Below the pieces are notes generated by a model. The model was not told where the DNA came from. It saw nothing but the letters and a program-made list of their open reading frames with translations, and ran no database searches. A stretch of DNA of 64,000 nt from contig JAAYLR010000141.1 of assembly GCA_012521815.1 (NCBI GenBank), positions 414 to 64,413 of the forward strand, written 5' to 3'. Shown here piece by piece: positions 12,834-53,550 of this stretch. This DNA comes from Acidobacteriota bacterium. GTDB taxonomy: Bacteria; Acidobacteriota; Thermoanaerobaculia; Multivoradales; JAGPDF01. The position numbers and the translations under genes are program-made. How positions within the stretch are numbered: the stretch's first letter is position 1; every line of letters starts with the position of its first letter.

Positions 12834-12851
12834 GATACCTCCCGGCTGAGA

Positions 12852-13631: not shown

Positions 13632-13653
13632 CGGTGGCGGTTCTCCCCGGCGC

Positions 13654-16598: not shown

Positions 16599-16600
16599 GG

Positions 16601-17242: not shown

Positions 17243-17246
17243 CCGG

Positions 17247-20223: not shown

Positions 20224-20315
20224 GCCTCGCTCACCACGCGCTGCTCGATCCAGCGATAGATCGTCTTCTCGGAGACGTCCAGCAGGCGGGCGGCATCCCT
20301 GACGAGGAGCTTCAT
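20220..20315 (-). CDS. 31-aa mini helix-turn-helix ORF (excisionase/MerR-type HTH_17-like), translationally coupled to the complex operon
   Basis: MKLLVRDAARLLDVSEKTIYRWIEQRVVSEA: a canonical 'LL.vs..T.YRwi..' HTH with the usual C-terminal wing missing. Its stop overlaps the next ATG (ATGA). Absent from the track because it is under 60 aa. No strong SD. Confidence 0.35.
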   Translation of the reverse strand: MKLLVRDAARLLDVSEKTIYRWIEQRVVSEA

Positions 20316-20350
20316 GGAGCAGATGTCGCCCCAGGGGGACGACAATGGAC

Positions 20351-20379
20351 AATCTATCCCGCTCCCACTCCCACTTCAA
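20351..20379 (-). promoter_or_regulatory. candidate sigma70-type promoter for the mini-HTH / complex operon
   Basis: On the minus strand: TTGAAG (20379-20374), a 17-nt spacer, TAGATT (20356-20351), about 40 nt upstream of the HTH ATG. An AATCAtTGATT inverted repeat lies about 50 nt further upstream (20432-20442). Confidence 0.3.
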
Positions 20380-20517
20380 CGGATGACAGGCAATGGCGAA
20401 AGCGGACCTCGCCCCGTCCAATCCGATCAAATCATTGATTCAAAGGAGTTTTCTCGCTCGTCGGCGCGCCCGGCACGCGACGGGAGGACGCTCACCCTCA
20501 CCCCTCCGCAAATCGCC

Positions 20518-31435: not shown

Positions 31436-32389
31436 ATGAAGCGCATCCTCGTGACCGGCGCGCTCGGTCAGATCGGTTCCGAGCTCGTCCCGGCGCTGGC
31501 CGCCCGTTTCGGCTCCGACGCCATCGTCGCCTCCGACATCCGCCTGCCCCCCGCGGGCCAGTCCGGCCCGCTCGGCCACTTCGAGTTCCTCGACTCGACC
31601 AACCTGCGGCAGATCCAGGATCTCGTGCGCCGCTACGACGTGGGGACGATCTACCACCTCGCGGCCCTGCTCTCGGCGTCGGCCGAGGAGAAGCCCCACG
31701 TCGCCTGGGAGCTGAACATGGGCGGGCTCTACAAGATCCTCGAGGTCGCCCGGGCCCACCGTTGCAAGGTCTTCTTCCCGAGCTCGATCGGCGCCTTCGG
31801 TCCCGGCACCCCGAAGGAGCGCACGCCGCAGGAGACCCTCCAGCGGCCGACGACGATCTACGGCGTCACCAAGGTCGCCGGCGAGCTGCTCTGCGACTAC
31901 TACCACCAGCGCTTCGACCTCGACACCCGCGGCCTGCGCTTCCCGGGGCTGATCTCCTACGTCGCCCCGCCCGGCGGCGGCACCACCGACTACGCGGTGG
32001 CGATCTTCTACGACGCCCTCCGCCACGGCCGCTACACCTGCTTCCTCGGGCCCGACACCCGGCTCGACATGATGTACATGCCCGACGCGGTCAGCGCGCT
32101 CATCGAGCTGATGGCCGCCGACCCGCAGCGGCTCGTGCATCGCAACGCCTTCAACGTCACCGCGATGAACTTCACCCCCGCGGAGCTGGCGGCCGAGATC
32201 CGGAAGCACCTGCCCGATTTCCGCATCGACTACGAGATCGACCCCATCCGGCAGGCGATCGCCGACTCGTGGCCGGACTCGCTCGACGACTCCGCGGCGC
32301 GGGAGGAGTGGGGCTGGAAGCCGGTCTACGACCTGCCCACGATGGTGGCCGACATGCTCGACAAGCTCCGCGCCAAGCTCCGTCTCTGA
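31436..32389 (+). CDS. tdh: L-threonine 3-dehydrogenase (NAD-dependent epimerase/dehydratase-fold type)
   Basis: MKRILVTGALGQIGSELV...YHLAALLSA...NMGGLYKILE...TIYGVTKVAGELL; GGGAGG RBS; directly followed by kbl. Confidence 0.9.
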   Translation: MKRILVTGALGQIGSELVPALAARFGSDAIVASDIRLPPAGQSGPLGHFEFLDSTNLRQIQDLVRRYDVGTIYHLAALLSASAEEKPHVAWELNMGGLYKILEVARAHRCKVFFPSSIGAFGPGTPKERTPQETLQRPTTIYGVTKVAGELLCDYYHQRFDLDTRGLRFPGLISYVAPPGGGTTDYAVAIFYDALRHGRYTCFLGPDTRLDMMYMPDAVSALIELMAADPQRLVHRNAFNVTAMNFTPAELAAEIRKHLPDFRIDYEIDPIRQAIADSWPDSLDDSAAREEWGWKPVYDLPTMVADMLDKLRAKLRL

Positions 32390-32405
32390 TCCAGGAGATC
32401 CGACC

Positions 32406-33644
32406 GTGCCCACCGACCGCCTGCACGAAACGCTCGCCCAGGAGATCCACGCCGTCGACGCCCGGGGCGCGAGCAAACGGCGCGAGCCCGTGATCACCGG
32501 CGTGCTCCCCGCCCAGGACGGCTTCGGCCCCCGCTACCTGCTCGCCGGGGAGGGATCGCAGCCGTTCCTGAAGATGAACTCCAACAACTACCTCGGCATG
32601 GCGCTGCGGGCCGAGCTCGCCGCCGCCGCCGAGGGCGCCGGCCGGCTCTACGGCGCCGGACCCGGCGCGGTCCGCTTCATCAGCGGCACCTGCGCCCCCC
32701 ACGTCGAGCTCGAGGAGCGGCTCGCCGCCTTCCACGGCCGGGAAGCGGCGATGCTCTTCAGCGCCGCCTACTCCGCGATGATCGGCGTCATCGTGCCCCT
32801 GGTGAGCGCCGACACCGTGCTCGTCAGCGACGAGCTGAACCACAACTGCATCATCAACGCGATGCGCCTCGCCCGGCCGCGGGAGAAGTACGTCTACCGC
32901 CACCTCGACCTCGCCGAGCTCGACGAGCGCCTCACCATGGCCGCCGCGAGCGGCGCCCGCCGGGCGCTGGTGGTCACCGACGGCATCTTCAGCATGCGCG
33001 GCGACCACGCCCCCCTCGCCGAGATCGCCGCCCTCTGCCGCCGCCACGACGCCGCCTTCGCCGAGAACGTCGTCCTGCTCGTGGACGACTCGCACGGGGT
33101 GGGCGCCTGCGGCGCCACCGGCCGCGGCACCGAGGAGATCACCGGCTCGGAGCCGGCCGACATCCTCGTCGCCACCCTCGGCAAGGCGCTCGGGGTCAAC
33201 GGCGGCTACGTGGTCGGCAGCCGGGTGCTAGTCGATTTCCTGCGCGAGACCGCGCCGACCTACATCTACTCGAACCCGATCGGTGCGAGCGAGGCGGCGG
33301 CCGCGCTCGCCGCCCTCGACCTGCTCGACAGCCCGCGGGGGCGCGAGCTGCTCGCGCACCTGCGGGCGATGACCCGGCGCTTCGAGAAGGGACTCATCGA
33401 CCTCGGCCTCGAGACGATCCCGAGCGAACACCCGGTGGTCCCGCTGATGGTGCGCGACACGCCCCGGACGCTCGCCATCGTCGACCACCTGCGGGCGCAC
33501 GGGGTCCTCGCCACCGGGCTGAACTTCCCCGTGGTGCCGCGCGGCGACGAGGAGATCCGCTTCCAGGTGAGCGCCGACCACACCCCCGCCGACATCGACT
33601 ACGTCCTCGAGCAGCTCGGCCGGTTCGCGCCGGCGGCCGGCTGA
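32406..33644 (+). CDS. kbl: 2-amino-3-ketobutyrate CoA ligase (glycine C-acetyltransferase)
   Basis: GTG start, AGGAG RBS. Class-II aminotransferase fold with PLP-lysine ATLGKALG; paired with tdh. Confidence 0.9.
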   Translation: MPTDRLHETLAQEIHAVDARGASKRREPVITGVLPAQDGFGPRYLLAGEGSQPFLKMNSNNYLGMALRAELAAAAEGAGRLYGAGPGAVRFISGTCAPHVELEERLAAFHGREAAMLFSAAYSAMIGVIVPLVSADTVLVSDELNHNCIINAMRLARPREKYVYRHLDLAELDERLTMAAASGARRALVVTDGIFSMRGDHAPLAEIAALCRRHDAAFAENVVLLVDDSHGVGACGATGRGTEEITGSEPADILVATLGKALGVNGGYVVGSRVLVDFLRETAPTYIYSNPIGASEAAAALAALDLLDSPRGRELLAHLRAMTRRFEKGLIDLGLETIPSEHPVVPLMVRDTPRTLAIVDHLRAHGVLATGLNFPVVPRGDEEIRFQVSADHTPADIDYVLEQLGRFAPAAG

Positions 33645-36891: not shown

Positions 36892-37710
36892 TCATCCCCG
36901 CAGCGCGAAGCCGAGCAGTGCGAGGCCGAAGGCGACGCGGTAGAGGACGAACGGCGCGAGCGAGCGGCGGCGCAGCCAGGCGAGGAGCCAGGCGATCACC
37001 AGGTAGCCGGCCGCCGCCGAGACCCCGACCACCGCGAGCGGCGCCAGCCAGCCGCCGAACGCCACGGGGGCGATCCCGAGCAGGTGCTCGCCGAGATCCT
37101 TCCCCGCCGCCAGGATCCCCACCGGCACCGCGAGGAGGAAGGCGAAGCGGGCCGCCGCCGGCCGGGTGAAGCCGAGCAGCAGGAGCGCGGTGAGCGTGAT
37201 CCCCGACCGCGAGGTGCCGGGCACGAGCGCGAGCGCCTGGGCGGCGCCCACCAGCAGCGCCGTCTTCCAGGTCAGATCGGCTTCGGTCCGCTCCTGGCGG
37301 GCGCGCCGGTCGGCCCAGAGCAGGAGCAGGCCGTAGGCGATCAGGTTGACGGCGACGAGCAGCGGCCGGCGGCCGGCCCCCTCGACCCACCGGTGGATCG
37401 CGAGCCCCACCACCACCGCCGGCAGCGTGCCGAGCGCGAGGTACCAGCCGAGCCGGGCGGCGGGAGGCGCCTCGGAGCGCCAGATCCGGGGCGCGGTCAG
37501 AGCGGAGCGCACGATCTCCAGGAGATCGCGCCGGAAGTAGACGGCCACCGCGAGCAGCGTGCCGGTGTTGGCGAGGATGTCGAACGAGAGCCCCTGGTCG
37601 GGCCAGCCGAGCAGGTGGGGGATCAGGATCAGGTGCCCCGAGGAGCTGATCGGCAGAAACTCCGTCACCGCCTGGACGAGCGCCAGGACGATCGCCTGGA
37701 GCGGGCTCAT
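36892..37710 (-). CDS. uppP: undecaprenyl-diphosphatase UppP (BacA)
   Basis: 272 aa from [27 protein letters not shown]; PGTSRSG motif. Confidence 0.9.
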
Positions 37711-37852
37711 CCGGTCGATCCAAACGAACGGAGTACCAGAGCGGGGCGAACCGAGAAGCGCGAGCGAGACATGGGCCGCCGCATATACTACGCGGGCGTT
37801 CGCCGTTACGTACCCGCCGCGTCGCGGACAGGATCGACGGAGAGCATCGCCC

Positions 37853-38956
37853 ATGGAGACCTGGATCGTCACCGGCGGAGCCGGGTTCATCGGCTCCAAC
37901 TTCGTCCACCGCGCGCTCGCGCGCGGCGATCGCCGCATCGTCGTGCTCGACAAGCTCACCTACGCCGGGCACCGGGAGAGCCTCGCCGGCGCCGAGGGGA
38001 ACCCCCGCTTCCGGTTCGTCGCGGGGGACATCGCCGACCGCGCCCTGGTGCGCACCCTCTTCGCCGCCGAGCGCCCCGCCGCGGTCGTGAACTTCGCCGC
38101 CGAGAGCCACGTGGACCGCTCGATCGAGGCCCCGGGGACGTTCGTCGAGACGAACGTCGTCGGCGTCTTCGAGCTGCTGGAGGCGGCCCGCGGCCATCTC
38201 GCCGGGCTGCCCGACGGCGAGCGGGAGCGGTTCCGCTTCCTCCACGTCTCGACCGACGAGGTCTACGGCAGCCTCGGCCCCACCGGCCTCTTCACCGAGA
38301 CGACGCCGTACGACCCGAGCTCCCCCTACAGCGCCTCGAAGGCGGCGGCCGACCACCTCGTGCACGCCTGGGCCCGCACCTACGGCCTGCCGGCGCTGCT
38401 GACGAACTGCTCGAACAACTACGGCCCGTACCAGTATCCGGAGAAGCTGATCCCGCTGATGATCCTCAACGCGCTCGAGGGCCGGCCGCTGCCGATCTAC
38501 GGCGACGGCGGCAACGTGCGCGACTGGATCTACGTCGGCGACCACTGCGAGGGGATCGAGCTCGCGCTCGCCCACGGCCGGCCCGGGGAGCGGTACAACC
38601 TCGGCGGCGGCAACGAGCGGACGAACCTGGAGGTGGTGGCGGCGATCTGCGCGGCGCTCGAAGCCGTCCGGCCGGCGCGGGAGAACCCGGCCCTCGCGGC
38701 GCGGGGGGTGACGAGCTACGAGGCGCTCCGCACCTTCGTCCCCGACCGCCCCGGCCACGACCGCCGGTATGCGATCGACGCCACGAAGGCGGCCCGCGAG
38801 CTCGGCTGGCGGGCCCGGCACGACTTCACCTCGGGCCTCGCCGCGACCGTCGCCTGGTACCTCGACCACCTCGACTGGTGCGCGGCCGTCCAGTCCGGCC
38901 GGTACGACCGGGAGCGGCTCGGCCTCGCCACGGCCCCCGCGGAGGGAGCGAAATGA
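37853..38956 (+). CDS. rfbB: dTDP-glucose 4,6-dehydratase
   Basis: [17 protein letters not shown]..., [11 protein letters not shown]. Start at the internal ATG of the track ORF 37559..38956. Confidence 0.95.
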
Positions 38957-39828
38957 GAGGGATCGTGCTCGCCGGCGGCGCGGGGAGCCGCCTCCACCCT
39001 CTGACCCGGGGGGTGAGCAAGCAGCTGCTGCCGGTCTACGACAAGCCGATGGTCTACTACCCGCTCTCGAGCCTCATGCTCGCCGGGATCCGGGAGATCC
39101 TCGTCATCACCACCCCCGAGGATCAGCCCGCCTTCCAGCGGCTGCTCGGCGACGGGAGCCGGTTCGGGATCGACCTCGCCTGGGCGGTGCAGCCGACCCC
39201 CGGCGGCCTCGCGCAGGCGTTCCTGATCGGCCGCGAGTTCGTGGGCGGCGAGCGGGTGGCGCTCGCCCTCGGCGACAACGTCTTTTACGGCCACGGCTTC
39301 TCGACCGACCTGGCCGCCGCCGCCGCGCGCGCGCAGGGAGCGACCGTCTTCGCCTACCGGGTTCGCGACCCGGAACGGTACGGGGTGGTCGAGCTCGGCG
39401 CCGACGGGCGGGCGCTCTCGATCGAGGAGAAGCCGGCCGCGCCACGCTCCCACCTCGCGGTGACCGGCCTCTACTTCTACGATCAGCGGGTGCTCGAGAT
39501 CGCCGCCGCGCTCCGCCCCTCGCCGCGCGGCGAGCTGGAGATCACCGACGTCAACCGGGCCTACCTCGCGGCCGGCGACCTCCACGTGCAGGTGCTCGGC
39601 CGCGGGATCGCCTGGCTCGACACCGGCACCCACGAGTCGCTCGCCCAGGCCTCCGCCTTCATCCAGGCGATCGAGGAGCGGCAGGGGCTCAAGGTCGCCT
39701 GCCTCGAGGAGATCGCCTGGCGTCAGGGCTGGCTCTCCGCCGACGAGCTCGCCCGGGAGGCCGCGGCCCTCGCCCAGTCGGAGTACGGCCGGTACCTGCA
39801 GCGGCTGCTCGCCGAGGAGGCGCGGTGA
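38953..39828 (+). CDS. rfbA: glucose-1-phosphate thymidylyltransferase
   Basis: [39 protein letters not shown]...; ATGA overlap with rfbB. Confidence 0.95.
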
Positions 39829-40394
39829 GGTTCACGCCCACCGCCCTGCCCGGCGTGGTGCTCGTCGAGCCCGACGTCCACCGCGACGAGCGCGGCTTCT
39901 TCCTCGAGGTCTTCCACCGCACCCGCTGGGCCGAGCAGGGCGGCCTCGATCTCGACTTCGTCCAGGACAACCACTCCCGCTCCCGCCGCGGCACCCTGCG
40001 CGGCCTCCACGCCCAGATCGAGACCCCGCAGGGGAAGCTCGTCCGCTGCCCCCGGGGCGCGCTCTTCGACGTCGCGGTCGACGTGCGGCGCGGTTCGCCC
40101 ACCTTCGGGCGCTGGGTCGGCTACGAGCTCTCGGAGGAGAACTTCCGCCTGCTCTGGATCCCGCCGGGGTTCCTCCACGGCTTCTGCGCGCTCTCCGAGA
40201 TCGCCGAGCTGAGCTACAAATGCACCGGGCCGTACGATCCGGCCGCCGAGATCACGGTGGCGTGGAACGACCCGGAGATCGGCATCGCCTGGCCGGTGGC
40301 CGAACCGGTCCTCTCGGCGCGCGACGCCGCGGCGCCGCCGCTCGCGGCACTCCACGAGCGGCTCCCCCGCTACTCCGGAAGCCCGGCTCCGTGA
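39825..40394 (+). CDS. rfbC: dTDP-4-dehydrorhamnose 3,5-epimerase
   Basis: GTG start overlapping the rfbA stop (GTGA); cupin fold ...[10 protein letters not shown]...LRGLHAQ...[27 protein letters not shown]... Confidence 0.9.
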
Positions 40395-41956
40395 ACGCGC
40401 GGGCGGCGGTGCTCTCTCCGGCCGATCTCGCCGCGCTCGCCGCGGCGGGGATCGCCGCCGGCGAGGCCGAACGCCAGCTCGCGCTCCTCGCCGCGCCGCC
40501 GCCGCCGCTCCGGCTGGCACGCCCCTGCGCGGTGGGCGACGGGATCGTCCGCCTCGCTCCCGGCGACGAGCCGGCGCTCCTCGCCGCCGCCCGGGAGGCC
40601 GCGGCCCGGGGCGCGCTCGCGAAGTTCGTGCCCGCCTCGGGTGCGGCGACCCGGATGTTCACCGGCCTGCTGGCGCTCGCCGCCGATCCGGACGCCGAGG
40701 GCGGCCGCCGGGAGGCCGCGGCGGTCGGCACCTCGCTCGCCCGGCTGGCGCTCCGCGACCGGCTCGCGACCCTCCTCGCGCCGCGCGGCGAGACGGCGGC
40801 GGCGCTCGCCGCCGATCCCGTCCGTCTCGCCCGGGCGATCGTCGGCGCCGACGGCCTCGACCTCGCCGCTCTCCCCAAAGGCCTCCTCCCGTTCCATCTC
40901 TACCCGGAGGGGGAGCGAACCGCCTTCGTCGAGCACCTCGTCGAGGGGGCGGCGTATCTCGCCGACCGGGAGGGGCTCTGCCGGTTCGACTTCACCGTCC
41001 CTCCCGGCACCGACCCGCTCTTCCACGCCGCCCTCGCCGAGGCCGGCGAGCGCCACGCCCGGCGCCTCGGCGTCCGCTTCGAGGTCCGTCTCTCGCATCA
41101 GGAACGGGCGACCGACACCCTCGCGCTCGCTCCGGACGGAACGCCGTTCCGGCAGCCGGATGGCCGGCTCCTCCTCCGCCCCGGCGGCCACGGCGCGCTG
41201 CTCGGCAACCTCGAGGCGACCGGCCGCGAGCTCGTGCTCGTGAAGAACATCGACAACGTCCTGCCCGCGGACCGGCACGCCGAGGTGGCGCATTGGCAGC
41301 AGCTGCTCGCCGGTCTCGCGCTCACGCTCACCGCCCGGCGCGACGCCATGCTCCGGGCGCTCGCAGCGGCGCCGGCGCGGGAGACGATCCGCGCGGCGGC
41401 GACGCTGCTCGCCGCGCTCGCCGACCCGGAGGCGGCGGCGCTCGGCGCGGAGCCCTCGCCCGCGCACCTCCGCGACCGCCTCCGCCGGCCGCTGCGCGTC
41501 TGCGGCGTCGTCCGCAACGAAGGGGAGCCCGGCGGAGGCCCCTTCTGGGTGCGCGACGAGGCGGGCCGGGAGAGCCTCCAGATCGTCGAGGGGGCGCAGG
41601 TCGCCCGGAGCGATCCGGAGCAGGCGGCGATCTGGCGCGCCTCCACCCATTTCAATCCGGTCCAGCTCGCCTGTGCGCTGCGCGACGAGAAGGGGAAGCC
41701 GTTCCCGCTCGCCCGCTTCGTCGACGAGACGGCGGTCGTCATCGCCGAGAAGCGCGAAGGGAGCCGCCCGCTGCGCGCCCTCGAACGGCCCGGGCTCTGG
41801 AACGGCGCCATGGCCCGCTGGCACACCGTCTTCGTGGAGGTGCCGGTGGCGATCTTCGCCCCGGTCAAGACCCTCCTCGACCTCGCGCGGCCCGAGCATC
41901 AGGCCGGCGCCGCCCCACCCGTTGACACGGTTTCCGCCCGCCCCTCGGCGGGCTAG
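40391..41956 (+). CDS. UDPGP-family (eukaryote-type UTP-sugar-1-phosphate uridylyltransferase-like) protein, coupled to rfbC
   Basis: GTG start overlapping the rfbC stop (GTGA); 521 aa. Motifs KFVPASGAATRMF (cf. UGPase LNGGLGTSMG), RPGGHGALLGNL...LVLVKNIDNV (cf. PPGHGD...IFVSNIDNL) and IFAPVKTLLDL (cf. FLPVKTTSDLL). Confidence 0.65.
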   Translation: MNARAAVLSPADLAALAAAGIAAGEAERQLALLAAPPPPLRLARPCAVGDGIVRLAPGDEPALLAAAREAAARGALAKFVPASGAATRMFTGLLALAADPDAEGGRREAAAVGTSLARLALRDRLATLLAPRGETAAALAADPVRLARAIVGADGLDLAALPKGLLPFHLYPEGERTAFVEHLVEGAAYLADREGLCRFDFTVPPGTDPLFHAALAEAGERHARRLGVRFEVRLSHQERATDTLALAPDGTPFRQPDGRLLLRPGGHGALLGNLEATGRELVLVKNIDNVLPADRHAEVAHWQQLLAGLALTLTARRDAMLRALAAAPARETIRAAATLLAALADPEAAALGAEPSPAHLRDRLRRPLRVCGVVRNEGEPGGGPFWVRDEAGRESLQIVEGAQVARSDPEQAAIWRASTHFNPVQLACALRDEKGKPFPLARFVDETAVVIAEKREGSRPLRALERPGLWNGAMARWHTVFVEVPVAIFAPVKTLLDLARPEHQAGAAPPVDTVSARPSAG

Positions 41957-41998: not shown

Positions 41999-43156
41999 AT
42001 GCTGAACGTCTTCGTCCCCAAGGAGAGCCGGCCCGGCGAGCGGCGCGTCGCCGCCACCCCCGACAGCGTCAAGCGGCTGCTCAAGGCCGGCCTGGCCGTC
42101 CAGGTCGAGCGGGAGGCCGGCTTCGCGGCCGGCATCCCCGACGACGCCTACGCCAAGGCCGGGGCGACCGTCGCCGCCCACGCCACCGATCTCTGGCGCC
42201 ACGCCGACATCGTCCTCAAGGTGGCGCCGCTCGGCTCGAACCCGTCGCTCGGGATCATGGAGCTCGAGGCGCTCAAGCCGGGAGCGGTGCTGATCGGCTT
42301 CCTCGATCCGTTCAACCTGCCGGTCGTGCGCCGTTACGCCGAGCGGCGGATCACTGCGGTCTCGATGGAGCTGGTGCCGCGGATCACCCGCGCCCAGGTC
42401 ATGGACGCCCTCTCCTCGCAGGCGTCGGTCGCCGGCTACCGGGCGGTGCTGATCGCCGCGACCCGGGTGGGGAAGTACTTCCCGCTGATGACCACGGCCG
42501 CGGGCACCGTGACCCCCGCCCGGGTGGTCGTGCTCGGCGCCGGCGTCGCCGGGCTGCAGGCGGTCGCCACCGCCAGGCGGCTCGGCGCGGTCGTGGAGGT
42601 CTCCGACATCCGCCCCGCGGTCAAGGAGCAGGTCGAGTCGCTCGGCGGCCGCTTCATCGACCTGCCGCTCGAGGAGTCCGGTGAAGGGAGCGGCGGCTAC
42701 GCCCGCGAGCTCTCGAAGGCGGGCCTCGAGCGCCAGCGCGAGGTGCTCACCCGCCACCTCGCCCAGGCCGACGTGGTGATCACCACCGCGCAGGTCCCGG
42801 GCAAGCGGGCGCCGATCCTGGTGACCACCGCGATGGCCGAGCAGATGAAGCCGGGGGCGGTGATCGTCGACATCGCGGCCGAGCAGGGCGGCAACTGCGA
42901 GCTGACCCGTGCCGACGAGACGGTCGAGCATCGCGGGCTCCTGGTGCTCGGGCCGACCAACCTCGCCGCCGGCATGGCCGGCGACGCCAGCGTGCTCTAC
43001 GCGCGCAACGTGGCCGCGCTGCTGCTCCACTTCGTCCGGGACGGCGAGCTCGCCATCGATCCGGCCGACGAGGTGCTCGCCGGCGCGCTGCTGACCCACC
43101 AGGGCGAGGTCATCAACCGGACCGTCGCCGAGCTGCTCGCCGCCAGCCGCGGTTGA
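41999..43156 (+). CDS. pntAA: NAD(P) transhydrogenase alpha subunit part 1 (dI, NAD(H)-binding)
   Basis: 385 aa; VVLGAGVAGLQAV Rossmann, alanine-dehydrogenase/PNT N-terminal fold, C-terminal ...EQGGNCE...; no pntAB or pntB nearby. Confidence 0.85.
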   Translation: MLNVFVPKESRPGERRVAATPDSVKRLLKAGLAVQVEREAGFAAGIPDDAYAKAGATVAAHATDLWRHADIVLKVAPLGSNPSLGIMELEALKPGAVLIGFLDPFNLPVVRRYAERRITAVSMELVPRITRAQVMDALSSQASVAGYRAVLIAATRVGKYFPLMTTAAGTVTPARVVVLGAGVAGLQAVATARRLGAVVEVSDIRPAVKEQVESLGGRFIDLPLEESGEGSGGYARELSKAGLERQREVLTRHLAQADVVITTAQVPGKRAPILVTTAMAEQMKPGAVIVDIAAEQGGNCELTRADETVEHRGLLVLGPTNLAAGMAGDASVLYARNVAALLLHFVRDGELAIDPADEVLAGALLTHQGEVINRTVAELLAASRG

Positions 43157-43230: not shown

Positions 43231-45141
43231 ATGGGCGAACAGGACGTCCGAGAGCTCGACACGGAGTTGCAACGCGACTTCACGCGCAAGCTCCTCGCCG
43301 ACCTGCGCGCGCTCGAGCTGCTCCTCGACCACGGCTTCCTCGAATCGGGGGTGCGCCGGATCGGCGTCGAACAGGAGCTCTTCCTCGTCGACCGGCGCTG
43401 GCGGCCGGCGCCGCTGGCGATGGAGATGATCGACCGGCTCGCCGACGATCACTTCACCACCGAGGTCGCCCGCTTCAACCTCGAGTTCAACTCCGATCCG
43501 CTCGTCTTCGAGACCGACTGTCTCTCCCGGCTCGAACGGCAGCTGGAGGCGCTCCTCGCCCGGGCGCGGGAGGCGGCCGCCGAGCTCGGCATCGGGCTGG
43601 TGATGGTCGGCATCCTGCCCACCCTCGAGAAGTCGGACCTCACCCTCGCCAACATGACCCCGAAGCCGCGCTACTTCGCGCTCAACGACGCGATGCGGCG
43701 GCTGCGGGGAGGCGACTACGAGTTCCACATCAAGGGCCTCGACGAGCTGCTCGTGAGCCACGACTCGGTGATGGTCGAGGCGTGCAACACGAGCTTCCAG
43801 ACGCATTTCCAGGTCGGTCCGGAGGAGTTCGCGGAGCTCTACAACCTCACCCTCGCGATCGCCGCGCCGGTGCTCGCGGTGGCGTGCAACTCGCCGCTCC
43901 TCTTCGGCCGGCGCCTCTGGCGCGAGACCCGGATCGCCCTCTTCCAGCAGTCGGTCGACCATCGCGCGGCCACCCCCTCCCTGCGCGAGCAGGCGCCGCG
44001 CGTCTCCTTCGGACGGCGGTGGCTCGACGACTCGGTGCTCGAGATCTTCCGCGAGGACATCGCCCGCTTCCGGGTGCTGCTCGCGGCGGAGATCGACGAG
44101 GATCCGTTCGCCCGGATCCGGGCCAACGAGATCCCCGAGCTCAAGGCGCTGCGGCTCCACAACGGGACGATCTACCGCTGGGCGCGCCCCTGCTACGGGA
44201 TCCACGACGGCCGCGCCCACCTGCGGATCGAGAACCGGATCCTGCCGGCGGGCCCCTCCCTGCGCGACGAGATGGCCAACGCGGCCTTCTGGTACGGCCT
44301 GCTCGCCGGCGCCTCGCGCGAGTACGGCGACATCCGCTCCCGTCTCGAGTTCGATCACGCGCAGGAGAACTTCCTCGCCGCCGCGCGCCTCGGCCTGCGG
44401 GCCCGGTTCACCTGGCTCGACGGCGCCGACCTGACCGCCGAAAAGCTGGTGCTCGACGAGCTCCTGCCGCTCGCCCGCGAGGGGCTGCGCGTGAAGGAGA
44501 TCGCGGCCGAGGATGCCGATCGCTACCTCGGCGTGATCGAGGAGCGGGTCCGGGCGGGGCGGACCGGCGCGCAGTGGCTGCTCGATTCGCTCGCCGCGAT
44601 GCGCGGCCAGGGGCTTGCGGCCGAGCGGCTCGCGGCGCTGACCGCCGCCACCGCCGATCAGCAGCGGCAGGGGAAGCCGGTTCACGAATGGCCGCTCGCC
44701 CGCCGCGAGGACGCCGGCGGCTGGGAGCAGCACTTCACCCGCGTCGAGCAGTTCATGTCGCGCGATCTGTTCACCGTCGGCCCCGACGACATCGTCGATC
44801 TCGCCGCGGCGATCATGGACTGGAAGAACATCCATTACGTCCCGGTCGAGGACGCCCATCACCGCCTGCTCGGGCTCGTCACCCATCGCCGCCTCCTCCG
44901 CCTCCTCGGCCAGGGGCAGGGGAGCGCCGGCTCGCGGCCGCTGCCGGTGCACGAGGTGATGAAGCGGGAGGTGGTGACCGCGACCCCGGAGATGTCGGCC
45001 CTCGACGCGATGAGCCTGATGCGCCAGCGGCGGGTCGGCTGCCTGCCGGTCCTGCAGGGAGAGCGGCTGATCGGGCTCGTCACCGAGAACGATTTCCTCG
45101 GCGTCGCCGGCCAGCTCCTGGAGCACGAGCTGCGGCGATGA
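43231..45141 (+). CDS. glutamate-cysteine-ligase family 2 (GCS2/YbdK-like carboxylate-amine ligase) fused to a C-terminal CBS-domain pair
   Basis: 636 aa; GGGAGGG RBS. GCS2-like core (RIGVEQELFLVD..., HTHFQV); last ~150 aa are CBS-like (VPVED...LLGLVT, GCLPVLQGERLIGLVTENDFL). Confidence 0.8.
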   Translation: MGEQDVRELDTELQRDFTRKLLADLRALELLLDHGFLESGVRRIGVEQELFLVDRRWRPAPLAMEMIDRLADDHFTTEVARFNLEFNSDPLVFETDCLSRLERQLEALLARAREAAAELGIGLVMVGILPTLEKSDLTLANMTPKPRYFALNDAMRRLRGGDYEFHIKGLDELLVSHDSVMVEACNTSFQTHFQVGPEEFAELYNLTLAIAAPVLAVACNSPLLFGRRLWRETRIALFQQSVDHRAATPSLREQAPRVSFGRRWLDDSVLEIFREDIARFRVLLAAEIDEDPFARIRANEIPELKALRLHNGTIYRWARPCYGIHDGRAHLRIENRILPAGPSLRDEMANAAFWYGLLAGASREYGDIRSRLEFDHAQENFLAAARLGLRARFTWLDGADLTAEKLVLDELLPLAREGLRVKEIAAEDADRYLGVIEERVRAGRTGAQWLLDSLAAMRGQGLAAERLAALTAATADQQRQGKPVHEWPLARREDAGGWEQHFTRVEQFMSRDLFTVGPDDIVDLAAAIMDWKNIHYVPVEDAHHRLLGLVTHRRLLRLLGQGQGSAGSRPLPVHEVMKREVVTATPEMSALDAMSLMRQRRVGCLPVLQGERLIGLVTENDFLGVAGQLLEHELRR

Positions 45142-46844
45142 GCCGTCCCCGGTCGCGCCCCTCTCTCTCCTTCGCCCTCCTGGCGCTCGCGCTCCTCCTC
45201 GCCCCGCCGGCCGGCGCCGCGCTCCGCGGGGCGCTCGCCGCCGATGAGGCCGACGCGGTGGCGGCCGGTGCCGAGCTGCTCGCCGCGGGCGGCAACGCGG
45301 CGGACGCCGCCGTGGCCGCCGCCCTCGCCCTCGCGGTCGTCCACCCGGAGGCCGGCAACCTCGGCGGCGGCGGCTTCGCCGTCGCCCGCTGCGATGGCCG
45401 GCTCGTCGCGCTCGACTTCCGCGAGACGGCCCCCGCAGGGGCGCATCCGGGCCTCTTCCTCGACGCCGCGGGCGAGCCCCGGCCGGGAGCCTCGACCGAG
45501 GGCCCGCTCGCCGCCGGCGTCCCCGGTGCCCCGTGGGGGTATCACGAGCTCCACCGGCGCTGCGGCCGCCGCCCCTGGGCGGAGGTCGTCGCGCCGGCCG
45601 AGCGGCTGGCCCGCGACGGTTTCGCCCTCTCGCCGCGGAGCGCCCGCTCGCTCGCCCTCTCCGCCGGGCGGCTCGCCCGCTTCCCCGAGAGCGCCGCGAC
45701 CTGGCTCCCCGGCGGCACGCCGATCGCCGCCGGCAGCCGGGTGCGGTTGCCGGCGCTCGCCCAGACACTCGCGGCGTACGGCCGCCGCGGTCCGGCGGCC
45801 CTCGCCCGCGGCGCCGCCGCCCGCGCCCTCGTCGCCGCCTCGACGCGCCACGGCGGGATCCTCCGGATGGCCGACCTTGCCGCCTACCGGCCGGTCTGGC
45901 GCGAGCCCCTTCGGTTCGCGGCGTTCGGCTGGCAGCTCGCGGGGATGGGGCTCCCCTCCTCCGGCGGGACGATCACCGCCTGGACCCTCGCGCTCGCCGA
46001 GCGGGGCGGCTGGGCGAAGCTGCCCCGCGATGGCGCCGAGCGCGCCCATCTCCTCGCCGAGAGCTGGCGCCGGAGCTTCGCCGATCGCACCCTGCTCGGC
46101 GATCCGGCGACCAGCCGCGCCACCCCGGCCGTGCTCCTCGCCCCCGCGCGGCTGGCGCGGGCGCTGGCCGGAATCGATCCGGAGCGCGCCACGCCGTCGG
46201 CGGCGGTGCGGCCGGCCCCCGGTGCGCCGCCCCGCGAGCGGCCGGAGACCACCCACCTCGCGGTGGTCGACGCCGAGGGGAACGCGGTCGCGCTCACCAC
46301 GACGATCAACGACCTGTTCGGCTGCGCCCTCTGGGTGCCCGAGGTCGGGATCTTCCTCAACAACGAGATGGACGATTTCGCGACCGCCCCCGGCCGGCCG
46401 AACCTCTTCGGGCTCGTGCAGGGCGAGGCGAACGAGGTGCGCCCGGGGCGCCGGATGCTCTCCTCGATGAGCCCCACCCTCGCCTGGCGGGGGACGGAGA
46501 TCGTCGCCATCGGCGGCCGGGGCGGGTCGCGGATCCCGACCGCCACGGCGCAGGTGCTGCTCTTCCTGCTCGCCGACGGCGAGGCGATCCGCGCCGCGGC
46601 CGCCCACCCCCGGCTCCATCACCAGTGGCTCCCCGACCGGCTCGAGGCCGAACCGGGCGCGCTCGCGGCCGGGGCACGGGAGGAGCTCCGCGAGCGAGGA
46701 CACGAGGTCGTCCCGCCGCCCGCCACCGCCAAGGTGAACCTCGTCCGGCGGCGGGCGGACGGGGCGCTCGAGGCGGCCGGCGACCCACGCGGCCCGGGTG
46801 CGGCCACCCCCGTGACCCCGGCGCTCCCGGCCGCCGGGAACTGA
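45138..46844 (+). CDS. ggt: gamma-glutamyltranspeptidase
   Basis: Signal peptide MSRPRSRPSLSFALLALALLLAPPAGAA; autoprocessing nucleophile region ETTHLAVVDAEGNAVALTTTIN; ATGA overlap with the upstream gene. Confidence 0.9.
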   Translation: MSRPRSRPSLSFALLALALLLAPPAGAALRGALAADEADAVAAGAELLAAGGNAADAAVAAALALAVVHPEAGNLGGGGFAVARCDGRLVALDFRETAPAGAHPGLFLDAAGEPRPGASTEGPLAAGVPGAPWGYHELHRRCGRRPWAEVVAPAERLARDGFALSPRSARSLALSAGRLARFPESAATWLPGGTPIAAGSRVRLPALAQTLAAYGRRGPAALARGAAARALVAASTRHGGILRMADLAAYRPVWREPLRFAAFGWQLAGMGLPSSGGTITAWTLALAERGGWAKLPRDGAERAHLLAESWRRSFADRTLLGDPATSRATPAVLLAPARLARALAGIDPERATPSAAVRPAPGAPPRERPETTHLAVVDAEGNAVALTTTINDLFGCALWVPEVGIFLNNEMDDFATAPGRPNLFGLVQGEANEVRPGRRMLSSMSPTLAWRGTEIVAIGGRGGSRIPTATAQVLLFLLADGEAIRAAAAHPRLHHQWLPDRLEAEPGALAAGAREELRERGHEVVPPPATAKVNLVRRRADGALEAAGDPRGPGAATPVTPALPAAGN

Positions 46845-49487: not shown

Positions 49488-50624
49488 ATGCCGCCGACTC
49501 TCAACGCGCTGCTGAAGACCATGGTGGAGCAGGGGGGTTCCGATCTCCACATCACCACCAACTCCCCGCCCCAGATCCGGGTCGACGGCGTTCTCCACGC
49601 CCTCGACATCCCCCCGATGTCGCCCAGCGACACGAAACAGATCTGCTACGCCATCCTCACCGACAACCAGAAACACCGCCTCGAGGAGAACCTCGAGATC
49701 GACTTCTCCTTCGGCATCAAGGGGCTCTCCCGCTTCCGCGCCAACGTCTACCATCAGAGGGGGGCCATCGCCGGCGCCTTCCGGACGATCCCCTACGAGA
49801 TCCGCTCCTTCCGGGATCTCGGCCTGCCGCCGGTGGTGGAGAAGATCTGCGAGAAGCCGCGCGGGCTCGTGCTGGTGACCGGCCCCACCGGCTCCGGCAA
49901 GACGACGACGCTCGCGGCGATGCTCGACAAGATCAACCGGGAGCGCCACGAGCACATCGTCACCATCGAGGACCCGGTCGAGTACCTCCACTCGCACAAG
50001 AAGTGCATCGTCAACCAGCGCGAGCTCCACGCCGACACCCACAGCTTCGCCAACGCGCTGCGTTCGGCGCTGCGGCAGGATCCCGACGTGGTGCTGATCG
50101 GCGAGATGCGCGACTACGAGACGGTCGAGTCGGCGCTCCGCATCGCCGAGACCGGCCACCTCACCTTCGCCACCCTCCACACCAACAGCGCCGCGCAGAC
50201 GATCAACCGTATCGTGGACATCTTCCCCGCCCACCAGCAGGGGCAGATCCGCGTGCAACTCTCGTTCGTGCTCGAAGGCATCCTCTGCCAGTCGCTCCTG
50301 CCGCGCGTCTCCGGCAAGGGCCGGGCCCTCGCCATGGAGATCCTGGTTCCCAACTCGGCGATCCGCAACCTGATCCGCGAGGACAAGGTGCACCAGATCT
50401 ACGGCATGATGCAGACCGGACAGGCCAAGCACGGGATGCAGACCTTCAACCAGTCCCTGGCCACGCTCTACTTCCGGCGCCAGATCAGCCTGCAGACCGC
50501 GCTCGCCCGCTCTTCGTATCCGGACGAGCTGCAGGAGATCATCGCCCGTGGTCCCTCCGCGGTCGGCCTCGGGCCGCAGGGGGCGGAGAAGCCGGGGAAC
50601 TCGACCGCTGCCGTCAGGAGCTGA
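49488..50624 (+). CDS. pilT: type IV pilus retraction ATPase PilT
   Basis: 378 aa; GSDLHITTNSPPQIRVDG; Walker A GPTGSGKTT; AAGGAG RBS. Confidence 0.95.
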   Translation: MPPTLNALLKTMVEQGGSDLHITTNSPPQIRVDGVLHALDIPPMSPSDTKQICYAILTDNQKHRLEENLEIDFSFGIKGLSRFRANVYHQRGAIAGAFRTIPYEIRSFRDLGLPPVVEKICEKPRGLVLVTGPTGSGKTTTLAAMLDKINRERHEHIVTIEDPVEYLHSHKKCIVNQRELHADTHSFANALRSALRQDPDVVLIGEMRDYETVESALRIAETGHLTFATLHTNSAAQTINRIVDIFPAHQQGQIRVQLSFVLEGILCQSLLPRVSGKGRALAMEILVPNSAIRNLIREDKVHQIYGMMQTGQAKHGMQTFNQSLATLYFRRQISLQTALARSSYPDELQEIIARGPSAVGLGPQGAEKPGNSTAAVRS

Positions 50625-50627
50625 GCC

Positions 50628-51833
50628 ATGCCGAACTTCGTCTGGAAGGGGAAGACCCGGACCGGCGCCCTGCAGGAGGGCGTGCTGCTCGCCGACTCCC
50701 GTGACGCGGCGCTCGCCGTGCTGCGGCGCCAGAACATCCAGGTCACCAACCTGCGGGAGAAGGGCAAGGAGGTCCGCCTCCTGCCGCGGCTGCCCCAGGG
50801 GATCGACGCCAAACGGGTCGCGGTCTTCACCCGGCAGTTCTCGGTGATGCTCGATGCCGGCCTGCCCCTCGTGCAGTGTCTCGAGATCCTCGGCGAGCAG
50901 GAGGAGAACCGGCGGTTCCGGGAGATCATCAACCAGGTGCGCAGCGACGTCGAGCAGGGCTCCTCGCTCGCCGACGCGATGCGCAAGCACCCGGTGGCCT
51001 TCAACAACCTCTACACCAACATGATCGCCGCCGGCGAGGCGGGCGGCATCCTCGACATCATCCTCCAGCGGCTGTCGACCTACATCGAGAAGGCGGTCAA
51101 GCTCAACGCCCAGGTGAAATCGGCGCTGGTCTACCCGACGACCGTCATCGTCATCGCCGTCCTGGTCGTGATCGTCATCCTCTGGAAGGTGATCCCGGTC
51201 TTCGCCCAGCTCTTCGCCGGGCTCGGCGGCGAGCTGCCGTTCCTCACCCGCATGGTGGTCGGCGCGAGCAACTTCCTCGGCCGCTACTTCATCTTCGTCG
51301 CCATCGGCGTGGTGGCGCTCGTCTACGCCGTGCGCGCCTGGCACAAGACGCCGAGCGGGGCGCGGATCATCGACGCCGGCCTGCTGCGGATCCCGGCGAT
51401 CGGCATGCTGCTGCGCAAGATCGCGGTCGCCCGCTTCTGCCGCACCCTCTCGACGCTGACCTCCTCCGGCGTGCCGATCCTCGACGGTCTCGAGATCACC
51501 GCCAAGACGGCGGGCAACGCGATCATCGAGGACGCGGTGATGGCGGTGCGCAAGAACGTCGAGGAGGGCAAGACGATCTCCGGACCGCTCGCCGAGACCA
51601 AGGTCTTCCCGGCGATGGTCGTGCACATGATCAACGTCGGCGAACAGACCGGCGCGCTCGACCAGATGCTCTCGAAGATCGCGGACTTCTACGAGGAAGA
51701 GGTGGACATGGCGGTGGCCAACCTCATGAAGCTGATCGAACCGCTCATGATCCTCTTCCTCGGCACAGTCATCGGCACCATCGTGGCCGCGATGTACCTG
51801 CCCATGTACGCGATTCTCCAGAAGCTCGGCTAG
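50628..51833 (+). CDS. pilC: type IV pilus platform protein PilC (GspF family)
   Basis: 401 aa; two GspF repeats; AGGAG RBS 3 nt after the pilT stop. Confidence 0.9.
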   Translation: MPNFVWKGKTRTGALQEGVLLADSRDAALAVLRRQNIQVTNLREKGKEVRLLPRLPQGIDAKRVAVFTRQFSVMLDAGLPLVQCLEILGEQEENRRFREIINQVRSDVEQGSSLADAMRKHPVAFNNLYTNMIAAGEAGGILDIILQRLSTYIEKAVKLNAQVKSALVYPTTVIVIAVLVVIVILWKVIPVFAQLFAGLGGELPFLTRMVVGASNFLGRYFIFVAIGVVALVYAVRAWHKTPSGARIIDAGLLRIPAIGMLLRKIAVARFCRTLSTLTSSGVPILDGLEITAKTAGNAIIEDAVMAVRKNVEEGKTISGPLAETKVFPAMVVHMINVGEQTGALDQMLSKIADFYEEEVDMAVANLMKLIEPLMILFLGTVIGTIVAAMYLPMYAILQKLG

Positions 51834-51867
51834 CAGCGCCCTGTTCCCCACCCCGGCCACCGCCGCG

Positions 51868-53550
51868 GTGCCAGCGGCCCGCCTCCTCGGCCAGCTCCGC
51901 TGGCTCATCGTGATCCGGCTGGTGATGATCACCAGCGTGGCGGTGCCGTACTTCCTGCTCCGCCTCACCGCCGCCCGGGAAGGGCAGATCCCCTTCTTCG
52001 GCTCCGGCGCGCCCGACCTGCTGCTCCTGCTCACCGGCGCCACCTACCTCGCGAGCCTCGTCTATTTCGCGCTGCTGCGTCCTCTCGCTTGTCGCGCCGT
52101 CCTCCAGGCCGCGATCCAGTTCGGGGGCGACCTGGTGCTCATCACCGGGCTCGTCTACTGGTTCGGCGGCATCGCCAGCCCGTTCTCGCTGCTCTATCTG
52201 CTCGTCATCGCCTACGCCGCGGTGATGCTCCGGAGGCAGGCGGCGTTCTGGACCGCCACCGCCGCCTACATCGCCTACGCCGCCCTCCTGCTCGCGCTCT
52301 ATCGCGGCTGGATCCCCGGGCGCCCGGACACGCTCACCGGCGACGAGGGCTTCACGCGCCTCCTCTACAACCTCGCCGTCCACCTCTTCGGCTTCTACGC
52401 CGTCGCCCTTCTCACCTCGCATCTGGCTTTGACGCTGAGCCGCTCCGAGCGCGCGCTGGCCGAACAGAGCGACAACCTCGCCGATCTGCGGGTGGCGCAC
52501 CACGATGTCGTGCAGTCGATCCCGAGCGGCCTGCTCACCACCGATCTCGACGGCGCCGTCACCCGCCTGAACCGCGCGGCCGAGGAGATCCTCGGCCGCA
52601 GCGAAAGCGCCCTGCTCGGTGCGCACGTGGCCACGACCGGCCTCTTTTCGCGCTCGCGCTGGACGCACGAGACCGAGCTCGAGCGGCGGGGCGCCTACCA
52701 CCGTGCCGAGACCGAGCTCGCGCGGGGCGAGGCCCGGATCCCGATCGGCTACTCGCTCGGCGAGATCACCGACGCCCACGGCCGCCGCTCCGGCTTCGTC
52801 GTGGTCTTCCAGGACCTCTCCGAGTGGCGCCGGCTGCAGGAGGAGGTGCGGGTCAAGGACCGGATGGCGGCGGTCGGCGAGCTCGCCGCCGGGCTCGCGC
52901 ACGAGGTCGGCAACCCGCTCGCCGCGATCTCCGGCTCGGTGCAGATGCTCTCGGCCGCGCCCGGCGTCGACCCCGGCCAGCGCCAGCTGCTCACCATCGT
53001 GCACCGGGAGAGCCAGCGGCTCGACCGCACCATCAAGGGGTTCCTGCGCTTCGCGCGCCCCCGCGACCAGGCGGTGGTCGAGTTCGACATCGCCCGCCTC
53101 GTCGCCGAGCATTTCGAGCTGCTTCGCAACTCCGAGGAGGCCGGCCCGAGGCACCGGCTGCGGCTCGCGCTCGATCAGCAGTCGACGACCGCGATCGCCG
53201 ATCCCGACCAGGTGAGCCAGATCTTCTGGAACCTCGCCCGCAACGCCCTGCGCGCGATGCCCGACGGCGGCGACCTCGTGGTGAGCGGGCAGCGGCAGGA
53301 CGAGCGCTACCGGTTGAGCTTCCGCGACAGCGGCCACGGCATGGATCCCGAACAGCGCGCCCGTCTCTTCCAGCCCTTCCAGTCGTTCTTCGACGGCGGT
53401 ACCGGTCTCGGGATGGCGATCGTCTACCGTCTCGTCCAGGAGCACGACGGCCGCGTGAGTGTGGAGAGCAAGGAGGGCGCCGGGACGACGATCACCGTCG
53501 AGCTGCCGCTGCGGCCGGCGGCAGCGGCGTCCGAGAGGGGAACGGCATGA
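51868..53550 (+). CDS. pilS: PilS-like sensor histidine kinase
   Basis: GTG start; N-terminal 5-6 TM, a PAS-like segment, H-box GELAAGLAHEVGNPL, HATPase (GTGLGMAIV). Confidence 0.85.
   Translation: MPAARLLGQLRWLIVIRLVMITSVAVPYFLLRLTAAREGQIPFFGSGAPDLLLLLTGATYLASLVYFALLRPLACRAVLQAAIQFGGDLVLITGLVYWFGGIASPFSLLYLLVIAYAAVMLRRQAAFWTATAAYIAYAALLLALYRGWIPGRPDTLTGDEGFTRLLYNLAVHLFGFYAVALLTSHLALTLSRSERALAEQSDNLADLRVAHHDVVQSIPSGLLTTDLDGAVTRLNRAAEEILGRSESALLGAHVATTGLFSRSRWTHETELERRGAYHRAETELARGEARIPIGYSLGEITDAHGRRSGFVVVFQDLSEWRRLQEEVRVKDRMAAVGELAAGLAHEVGNPLAAISGSVQMLSAAPGVDPGQRQLLTIVHRESQRLDRTIKGFLRFARPRDQAVVEFDIARLVAEHFELLRNSEEAGPRHRLRLALDQQSTTAIADPDQVSQIFWNLARNALRAMPDGGDLVVSGQRQDERYRLSFRDSGHGMDPEQRARLFQPFQSFFDGGTGLGMAIVYRLVQEHDGRVSVESKEGAGTTITVELPLRPAAAASERGTA

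Follow-up and report, generated by a model that had tools for sequence, protein, structure and literature searches.

A DUF4301 gene downstream of rmlBAC in an Acidobacteriota operon: a putative sugar-1-phosphate nucleotidylyltransferase with a predicted eukaryote-type pyrophosphorylase fold

INTRODUCTION

A 521-amino-acid protein of the DUF4301 family, here called ORF4, is encoded directly downstream of rmlB, rmlA, and rmlC in a 64-kb stretch of Acidobacteriota DNA (contig JAAYLR010000141.1), hereafter the window. The described systems with which it can be compared are nucleotidylyltransferases of sugar metabolism. Bacteria normally make UDP-GlcNAc with GlmU, and AmgK-MurU is a sugar-salvage pair of a kinase and a pyrophosphorylase, in which MurU belongs to PF00483, the family of RmlA, GalU, and GalF. 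In Escherichia coli, galF adjoins rfbBDAC, a precedent for a second glucose-1-phosphate nucleotidylyltransferase beside rfb genes. In the eukaryote-type UDP-glucose pyrophosphorylase (UGPase; PF01704) of Trypanosoma brucei (TbUGP), the ligand contacts are made by Gly85/Gly86 and Gly191 (stacking on uracil), Gln163 (uracil heteroatoms), His192 and Lys256 (beta-phosphate), and Gly258, Glu281, and Asn303 (glucose hydroxyls), with Lys377 as the catalytic lysine (PMC3270307).

ORF4 shares with UGPases an overall predicted fold (Foldseek E values, 6e-10 to 1e-8, against T. brucei 3GUE, human 3R2W, yeast 2I5K, and Arabidopsis 2ICY), equivalents of the GHG, NIDN, (I/L)VE, FN, and PVKTxxDLL motifs and, by spacing and weak alignment, candidate counterparts of the uracil Gln, the phosphate-site His/Lys, and the hexose-site Glu/Asn. 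It differs from them in being only 10 to 17% identical and without a match to PF01704, in a nucleotide loop that reads SGAA(S/T)R where UGPases have GGxGT, in carrying a pair of ∼70-residue helical insertions and Pro in place of the sugar-loop Lys, and in that DUF4301 is exclusively bacterial. The UDP-GlcNAc pyrophosphorylases (UAP1/AGX1) of Aspergillus fumigatus, Candida albicans, and human gave the best Foldseek matches and the longest aligned span (template-modeling [TM] score, ∼0.5; E value, 1e-10), and the TR of the ORF4 nucleotide loop with the PK(G) downstream resembles what we take to be the UAP signature, LxxGxGTxMxxxxPK. Unlike in UAP, the PK motif is displaced by a ∼70-residue insertion, and the C-terminal catalytic motif, PVKT, is of the UGPase type. 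The reaction type proposed for ORF4 is that of RmlA, GalU, and GalF, whose genes also sit with rml genes; in contrast to them, ORF4 lacks a PF00483 match, approaches twice their length, and has a three-domain UDPGP architecture.

Taking sequence and modeled structure together, we hold with moderate confidence that ORF4 is an active UTP/dTTP:sugar-1-phosphate nucleotidylyltransferase with an envelope-glycan role, a statement confined to enzyme class and general role. The operon structure, predicted fold, motif invariance, and recurrent neighborhood are shown below, whereas catalysis, nucleotide and sugar specificity, and a biological role are inferred.

RESULTS AND DISCUSSION

Organization of the operon

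A preliminary description of the window had reported an rmlB-rmlA-rmlC operon running through a GTGA overlap into a 521-amino-acid open reading frame; coordinates, strand, and the 4-nucleotide (nt) overlaps were all confirmed. The operon spans 37853 to 41956 on the + strand, and the features of the region are as follows.

36892-37722, − strand: bacA/uppP, undecaprenyl-diphosphate phosphatase (Pfam BacA; E value, 1.5e-76), divergent from the operon
37723-37852: divergent intergenic region of 130 bp, the presumed site of the bacA and rml operon promoters
37853-38956, + strand: rmlB, dTDP-glucose 4,6-dehydratase (TIGR01181; 468.4 bits against a cutoff of 365.1)
38953-39828, + strand: rmlA, glucose-1-phosphate thymidylyltransferase (TIGR01207; 481.9 bits against a cutoff of 360.65)
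39825-40394, + strand: rmlC, dTDP-4-dehydrorhamnose 3,5-epimerase (TIGR01221; 227.2 bits against a cutoff of 155.75)
40391-41956, + strand: ORF4, DUF4301 protein of 521 amino acids, putative sugar-1-phosphate nucleotidylyltransferase (PF14134; E value, 3.5e-146)
41999-43156, + strand: AlaDh/PntA-like gene (Pfam AlaDh_PNT_N/C), starting 42 nt 3′ of ORF4

The rmlBAC genes themselves are ordinary. All three products exceed the NCBIfam equivalog cutoffs, and those of rmlB and rmlA share 52.5% and 61% identity with E. coli RfbB and RfbA, respectively. Each junction is a 4-nt start/stop overlap, read from the sequence as gaaATGAgag between rmlB and rmlA (ATGA, 38953 to 38956), gcgGTGAggt between rmlA and rmlC (GTGA, 39825 to 39828), and tccGTGAacg between rmlC and ORF4 (GTGA, 40391 to 40394). 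The GTG start of ORF4 agrees with the N termini of its homologues, and the protein matches, at 100% identity, a hypothetical protein from the metagenome-assembled genome "Acidobacteria bacterium ADurb.Bin051."

A consensus scan for promoters and terminators in this window of 74% G+C gave nothing above chance; no σ70 consensus was seen in 37723 to 37852, and the promoters are placed in the 130-bp region by inference. No terminator consensus was identified between ORF4 and the AlaDh/PntA-like gene, which is possibly cotranscribed with the operon and is not thought to be part of its function.

The DUF4301 family and its predicted fold

ORF4 matched PF14134 (DUF4301) with 488.5 bits against a cutoff of 27 over residues 11 to 504 (profile positions 3 to 507 of 507). 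No other family was found in the Pfam scan at an E value of ≤0.1, with PF01704 (UDPGP) and PF00483 both unmatched, and no NCBIfam model matched ORF4; the genuine RmlA is the product of the neighboring gene at 38953 to 39828. On these profile matches ORF4 is a typical DUF4301 member and not a UDPGP member in the Pfam sense. The preliminary description had assigned it to the UDPGP family (PF01704-like) and had taken failure against UDPGP models as refuting; by that rule the Pfam outcome counts against the assignment, which held at the level of fold and motifs.

Homologues of DUF4301 numbered 7997 in a 90%-clustered database and formed 3480 clusters at 50% identity (E value, ≤1e-3). Acidobacteriota, Bacteroidota (Prevotella, Alistipes, and Flavobacteriaceae), Desulfobacterota/Syntrophia, Binatia, and Calditrichia are included among 593 confirmed genomic matches, and members are labeled in databases as "hypothetical" or "DUF4301 family protein." In two proteins DUF4301 is fused at its C terminus, in P0386 (905 amino acids) to a response-regulator receiver plus a SpoIIE/PP2C phosphatase and in P0407 (730 amino acids) to SpoIIE alone. 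These could be genuine fusions or gene-call read-throughs; no other fusion type was seen, and they are uninformative on substrate.

The AlphaFold2 model of ORF4, built from 47 homologues, had a mean pLDDT of 92.6 and a pTM of 0.92. A Foldseek search of the PDB with this model returned 70 matches with E values of ≤1e-3, and all 50 matches listed were eukaryote-type UDP-GlcNAc or UDP-glucose pyrophosphorylases (E values, 1.1e-10 to 1.4e-8; probability, 1.00; identity, 10 to 17%), with TM scores of 0.34 to 0.50 when normalized to the query and 0.38 to 0.56 when normalized to the target. HMMER profile searches of PDB sequences recovered the same enzymes below threshold (human UGP2, E value of 0.58; Entamoeba UAP, 0.24 to 1.7; yeast Ugp1p, 1.9), in alignments that cover PGGHG, NIDN, IVE..Q, FN, LE, and F.PVKT..DLL. 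The same motifs were aligned by hhalign against C-terminal UGPase fragments (E value, 7e-4; probability, 27%), a comparison restricted to the C-terminal part as the UDPGP profile was seeded with a 101-amino-acid human UGP2 fragment and built from fragments of ≤177 amino acids. The subthreshold sequence matches are taken as supporting alignments and not as proof. Since the listed structural matches are all UAPs or UGPases, ORF4 is a remote homologue of the UDPGP fold in a separate sequence family; as judged from the model, DUF4301 is a divergent bacterial branch of the eukaryote-type UDPGP three-domain fold.

Motifs and predicted active site

The motifs quoted in the preliminary description are real and lie in ORF4 at residues 81 to 90 (PASGAATRMF), 263 to 268 (RPGGHG), 281 to 290 (LVLVKNIDNV), and 491 to 498 (PVKTLLDL). 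No substitution of their key residues was seen among 47 aligned sequences, 35 to 74% identical to ORF4, from Acidobacteriota, Bacteroidota, Desulfobacterota, Binatia, and Calditrichia. Across this alignment 57 positions are invariant, including G84, A85, R88, P162-K163, S235, Q237, G266-H267-G268, N286, D288, N289, G381-G382, E400, F421, and K493. Among the active-site counterparts only N422 varies, being kept in 45 of the 47 sequences. Two helical insertions of ∼70 residues each lie at roughly 91 to 160 and 293 to 365.

The DUF4301 counterparts of the TbUGP residues listed above, which occur in the same order, would be G84/A85, Q237, G266-H267, G381-G382, E400, N422, and K493. The GHG, NIDN, and PVK equivalences come from the subthreshold alignments, and the Gln and the nucleotide loop were assigned by spacing to TbUGP. 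The intervals agree closely for Gln-His (Q237 to H267, 30 residues versus 29 in TbUGP) and Glu-Asn (E400 to N422, 22 in both), while Asn-Lys is slightly shorter (N422 to K493, 71 versus 74). The conserved Gln points to a nucleotide with uracil or thymine as its base. The invariance of the substituted loop across phyla favors a working active site over a decayed one.

DUF4301 gene neighborhoods

Neighborhoods were compared in 80 genomes with DUF4301, in which 137 immediate neighbors were scanned. The examined locus contained rml genes in 10 of the 80, whereas chance alone would, by our estimate, put a random gene so near a single 3- to 4-kb rml locus in far fewer than 1% of genomes. The adjacency of rml genes and DUF4301 took at least five different arrangements in several lineages. 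Outside the operon type of the window, these were as follows.

Binatia (L038, 6579-14353; L068, 6664-14485): APH-family kinase gene on the − strand, divergent from DUF4301, gene for a TreT-like GT4 trehalose-synthase homologue, rmlB, rmlA, rmlC, and bacA
L044: DUF4301, a polyprenyl-phosphate transporter gene (DUF368/PopT-like), and rmlB-rmlA-rmlC
L074: DUF4301, rmlB, rmlA, rmlC, and an inorganic pyrophosphatase gene (12203-12877)
L035: a true rmlD (RmlD_sub_bind; E value, 1.7e-96) directly upstream of DUF4301

The Binatia loci form a second, differently ordered DUF4301/rml/bacA module in another phylum. Inorganic pyrophosphatase genes are also divergent neighbors of DUF4301 in L016 (7359 to 7952) and L032 (7353 to 7946), so that a pyrophosphatase stands next to DUF4301 or to a DUF4301-rmlBAC block in two lineages, which fits an enzyme that releases pyrophosphate (PPi). 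In L016 and L032 a phosphoglucomutase/GlmM-type gene lies ∼4 to 5 kb away. DedA-type proteins are encoded one or two genes downstream of DUF4301 in six loci.

In Thermoanaerobaculia and other Acidobacteriota the content of the operon varied as follows.

L082 (73% identity) and L090, the closest relatives: divergent bacA, then rmlB-rmlA-rmlC-DUF4301-pntA-GCS2/CBS-gamma-glutamyltranspeptidase, with synteny as in the window
L002, L013, and L084 to L087: divergent bacA, then rmlB-rmlC-DUF4301, without rmlA
L067: rmlB-rmlC-DUF4301, on a contig that begins inside rmlB, with bacA out of view
L088 and L089: divergent bacA, then rmlA-rmlC-DUF4301, without rmlB
L033: rmlA-DUF4301
L083: divergent bacA and DUF4301, with no rml gene

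The stable elements in this lineage are the divergent bacA, whose position is kept in L002, L013, and L083 to L090, and the 3′ pair rmlC-DUF4301, whose coding regions often overlap or nearly abut. The rmlB-rmlC-DUF4301 operons raised the possibility that DUF4301 replaces RmlA, which was rejected because rmlA-rmlC-DUF4301 operons exist and many loci hold both genes (the window, L033, L038, L044, L068, L074, and L088 to L090); given this co-occurrence, DUF4301 is not simply an RmlA substitute. An AlaDh/PntA-like gene also follows DUF4301 in L082, L088, L089, and L090. Farther downstream in the window (43231 to 46844, + strand), a gene for a GCS2 (glutamate-cysteine ligase family 2) protein with two C-terminal CBS domains overlaps the start of a gamma-glutamyltranspeptidase gene, and this pair is kept 3′ of DUF4301-pntA in L082 and L088 to L090.

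The 137-neighbor scan across the 80 loci identified no universal partner, only lineage-specific ones, namely, RelA/SpoT in Prevotella, FtsH in Desulfobacteria, MurB in Alistipes (murB is divergent in four loci), and, in Flavobacteriia, an AAA_28 kinase upstream and ArfB downstream. The recurrent link of DUF4301 to rml, bacA, and pyrophosphatase genes is a new result and the strongest functional clue. Through the recurrence of the rml neighborhood, the family is linked to the metabolism of nucleotide sugars and of envelope glycans carried on undecaprenyl phosphate, as well as to a reaction that produces PPi.

Proposed function and alternatives

As proposed, ORF4 would be cotranslated with RmlB, RmlA, and RmlC and would catalyze the reaction NTP + sugar-1-phosphate → NDP-sugar + PPi, with UTP or dTTP as the probable nucleotide and, probably, a sugar-1-phosphate of the hexose type. 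It would thereby supply a second nucleotide sugar, used alongside dTDP-rhamnose for an undecaprenyl-phosphate-linked envelope glycan. The simplest candidate substrate is glucose-1-phosphate, with UDP- or dTDP-glucose as the product. This choice is possible, though tentative, and glucose is favored because the motifs are UGPase-like, because a TreT-like, NDP-glucose-using glycosyltransferase gene sits between DUF4301 and rmlB in Binatia, and because the GalU paralogue gene galF adjoins rfbBDAC in E. coli.

Several observations weigh against a sugar-1-phosphate nucleotidylyltransferase. At the sequence level the ORF4 family does not match PF01704, and its hits to PDB chains are not significant (E values, 0.24 to 1.9); the residue mapping was drawn from the spacing of motifs and from weak alignments instead of from superposed structures. 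The nucleotide loop, PASGAA(S/T)RMF, keeps one Gly where UDPGP proteins have GGxGT(S/R), a family-invariant substitution, and the sugar-loop lysine of UGPases (TbUGP Lys256) is P380 in ORF4. Most DUF4301 genes, for example, those of Prevotella, Alistipes, and Desulfobacteria, have no sugar-related neighbors, and in Flavobacteriia a same-strand order of pnuC, a NadR-like kinase gene with the ribosylnicotinamide kinase (RNK) domain only, and DUF4301 points elsewhere. A literature search on DUF4301, PF14134, and IPR025393 yielded no biochemical data and a single passing mention, in a paper on a rumen metaproteome.

A wider claim is that DUF4301 is a widespread and previously unrecognized bacterial nucleotide-sugar pyrophosphorylase with a job outside those of RmlA, GalU, GlmU, and GlgC; we put this forward tentatively, as less probable than the enzyme class itself. 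It might be a eukaryote-like source of UDP-glucose for phyla such as Bacteroidota or, alternatively, its substrate might be the 1-phosphate of a 6-deoxyhexose or of some other sugar destined, alongside dTDP-rhamnose, for envelope glycans. On either reading, the rmlC-DUF4301 operon of Acidobacteriota would stand for a new step in the supply of precursors for these glycans. Bacteroidota have been reported to lack GlgC and to have a eukaryote-type GT3 glycogen synthase (PMC10395257; PMC11046441). The main worth of the finding lies in a very large uncharacterized family (∼3,500 clusters at 50% identity) with an evidently intact predicted active site and a reproducible rml/bacA/pyrophosphatase neighborhood, in phyla abundant in gut, rumen, marine, and soil habitats (Prevotella, Alistipes, Flavobacteriaceae, Acidobacteriota, and Desulfobacterota). 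If DUF4301 is an active UDPGP-type pyrophosphorylase, it fills a nucleotide-sugar annotation gap in these groups and may explain the supply of NDP-glucose where GlgC, and possibly a classical GalU too, is lacking.

The alternative that survives best, itself unlikely, is that DUF4301 is a salvage or recycling pyrophosphorylase that takes GlcNAc-1-phosphate, MurNAc-1-phosphate (as MurU does), or L-rhamnose-1-phosphate from an anomeric kinase and feeds peptidoglycan or envelope-glycan precursors. UDP-GlcNAc pyrophosphorylases are the best structural matches among those listed, yet GHG, NIDN, and PVKTxxDLL are closer to UGPase than to fungal or animal UAP. As in AmgK-MurU pairs, a kinase gene stands beside that of the nucleotidyltransferase in Binatia (APH; L038 and L068) and Flavobacteriia (AAA_28), and murB is divergent in the Alistipes loci; however, APH and murB each accompany DUF4301 in a single lineage only, on the opposite strand, and the operon of the window has no kinase gene. 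The bacA, DedA-type, and PopT-type polyprenyl-phosphate proteins that recur nearby would also suit such a salvage enzyme.

More doubtful is a non-sugar phosphate acceptor, for example, in a step like that of nicotinamide mononucleotide (NMN) adenylyltransferase in nicotinamide riboside salvage, with the rml linkage incidental. GT-A-like nucleotidyltransferases with non-sugar acceptors exist (IspD, LicC, and MobA). The flavobacterial cluster was found in L018, L022, L048, L056, L060, L073, and L078 (for example, L060, 2970 to 5682). In it, PnuC, a nicotinamide riboside transporter, is above the TIGR01528 cutoff, the AAA_28 kinase has no adenylyltransferase domain, and in L060 and L073 the kinase stop and DUF4301 start share a 4-nt overlap; the cluster could represent the nucleotidyl-transfer step of a riboside salvage route. 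This link occurs in one gene order only, and is therefore counted as one evolutionary event, against at least five arrangements for the rml link. Also against it, the invariant Q237 maps to the uracil-reading site and E400 and N422 to the hexose-hydroxyl sites of UGPases.

Less probable again is a noncatalytic or weakly active regulatory paralogue, a scaffold or GalF-like protein that modulates RmlA, RmlB, or RmlC. The partly substituted glycine loop and the missing UGPase lysine could be read in this way, and E. coli GalF, encoded beside the rfb genes, is annotated "low activity." Against these stand the 57 positions invariant across phyla at 35 to 50% overall identity, which include all catalytic-motif residues, and the lack of rml neighbors in most of the family, so that it cannot be a dedicated Rml partner. 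The catalytically altered scaffold entertained in the preliminary description is not supported, as the glycine loop and all other catalytic motifs are invariant across phyla.

Location of rmlD

No rmlD was identified when E. coli RfbD (from the K-12 rfb cluster) was searched by tblastn against the window. The sole match was a Rossmann half at 31442 to 31885 (28% identity; E value, 0.003), in a gene (31442 to 32389) of the generic Epimerase family to which RmlD models matched over the first ∼137 positions only. A Pfam scan of 42 other ORFs in the window gave RmlD_sub_bind only as partial, Rossmann-half matches in rmlB and in this gene; the same scan found no glycosyltransferase and no polysaccharide cluster. 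Gene tables for ∼10 kb past the right edge of the window and ∼5 kb past the left contained no rmlD. The search thus covered ∼79 kb, the 64-kb window plus ∼15 kb of flank; in nine relatives (L082 to L090), rmlD was not found within 10 kb of the operon. The reported absence of a nearby rmlD was therefore borne out.

The short-chain dehydrogenase/reductase (SDR) gene at 31442 to 32389 was considered as a cryptic rmlD and rejected: the match is to the Rossmann half only, another SDR type scores best, and the gene adjoins a Kbl/BioF-like gene. At 31442 to 33644 (+ strand) this extended-SDR gene is directly followed by one for a Kbl/BioF-type pyridoxal phosphate-dependent acyltransferase, and the pair probably encodes an SDR-type threonine dehydrogenase and a glycine C-acetyltransferase.

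Most likely, rmlD has another location in the genome, the situation in related bacteria, and its lack in the operon is ordinary for this lineage and presents no puzzle. Dispersed rml genes are known also from bacteria such as mycobacteria. The preliminary description had DUF4301 standing "instead of rmlD," but sister operons also lack rmlA, rmlB, or any rml gene, and none of them has rmlD within 10 kb; with rml genes scattered and the rml content of the operon fluid, the basis for that wording is gone. DUF4301 as a replacement for RmlD was likewise rejected, since it has the wrong fold and, having no SDR domain, cannot be the 4-reductase, and since rmlD adjoins DUF4301 in L035. A pathway truncated at an unreduced dTDP-4-keto-6-deoxy sugar, with DUF4301 in the place of RmlD, had also been suggested, and the failure to find rmlD in ∼79 kb or near the operon of the nine relatives agrees with it; it is nevertheless very improbable, because scattered rml genes are normal in the lineage, the ORF4 fold is that of a nucleotidyltransferase and includes no SDR/Rossmann reductase domain, sister operons equally without rmlA or rmlB show that the step need not be lost when the gene is absent from the operon, and a genuine rmlD lies directly upstream of DUF4301 in L035.

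Other features of the window and its flank

Just past the right edge of the window (L091, 3224 to 8072), ∼25 to 30 kb from the rml operon, two adjacent divergent genes encode YfhO-family membrane proteins. The YfhO family is linked to polyprenyl-phosphate-sugar-dependent glycosylation, and the pair are possible users of envelope sugar precursors. Type IV pilus-like genes for a T2SSE ATPase, a T2SSF platform protein, and a PilS-like histidine kinase were found at 49488 to 53550 (+ strand), where the G+C content falls to 0.67 versus ∼0.74 elsewhere. At 12852 to 20430 (− strand), genes for complex-I/Mrp-like membrane subunits (Oxidored_q6 with Fer4, NADHdh, and Proton_antipo_M) probably encode a membrane-bound hydrogenase or an Mrp-type complex.

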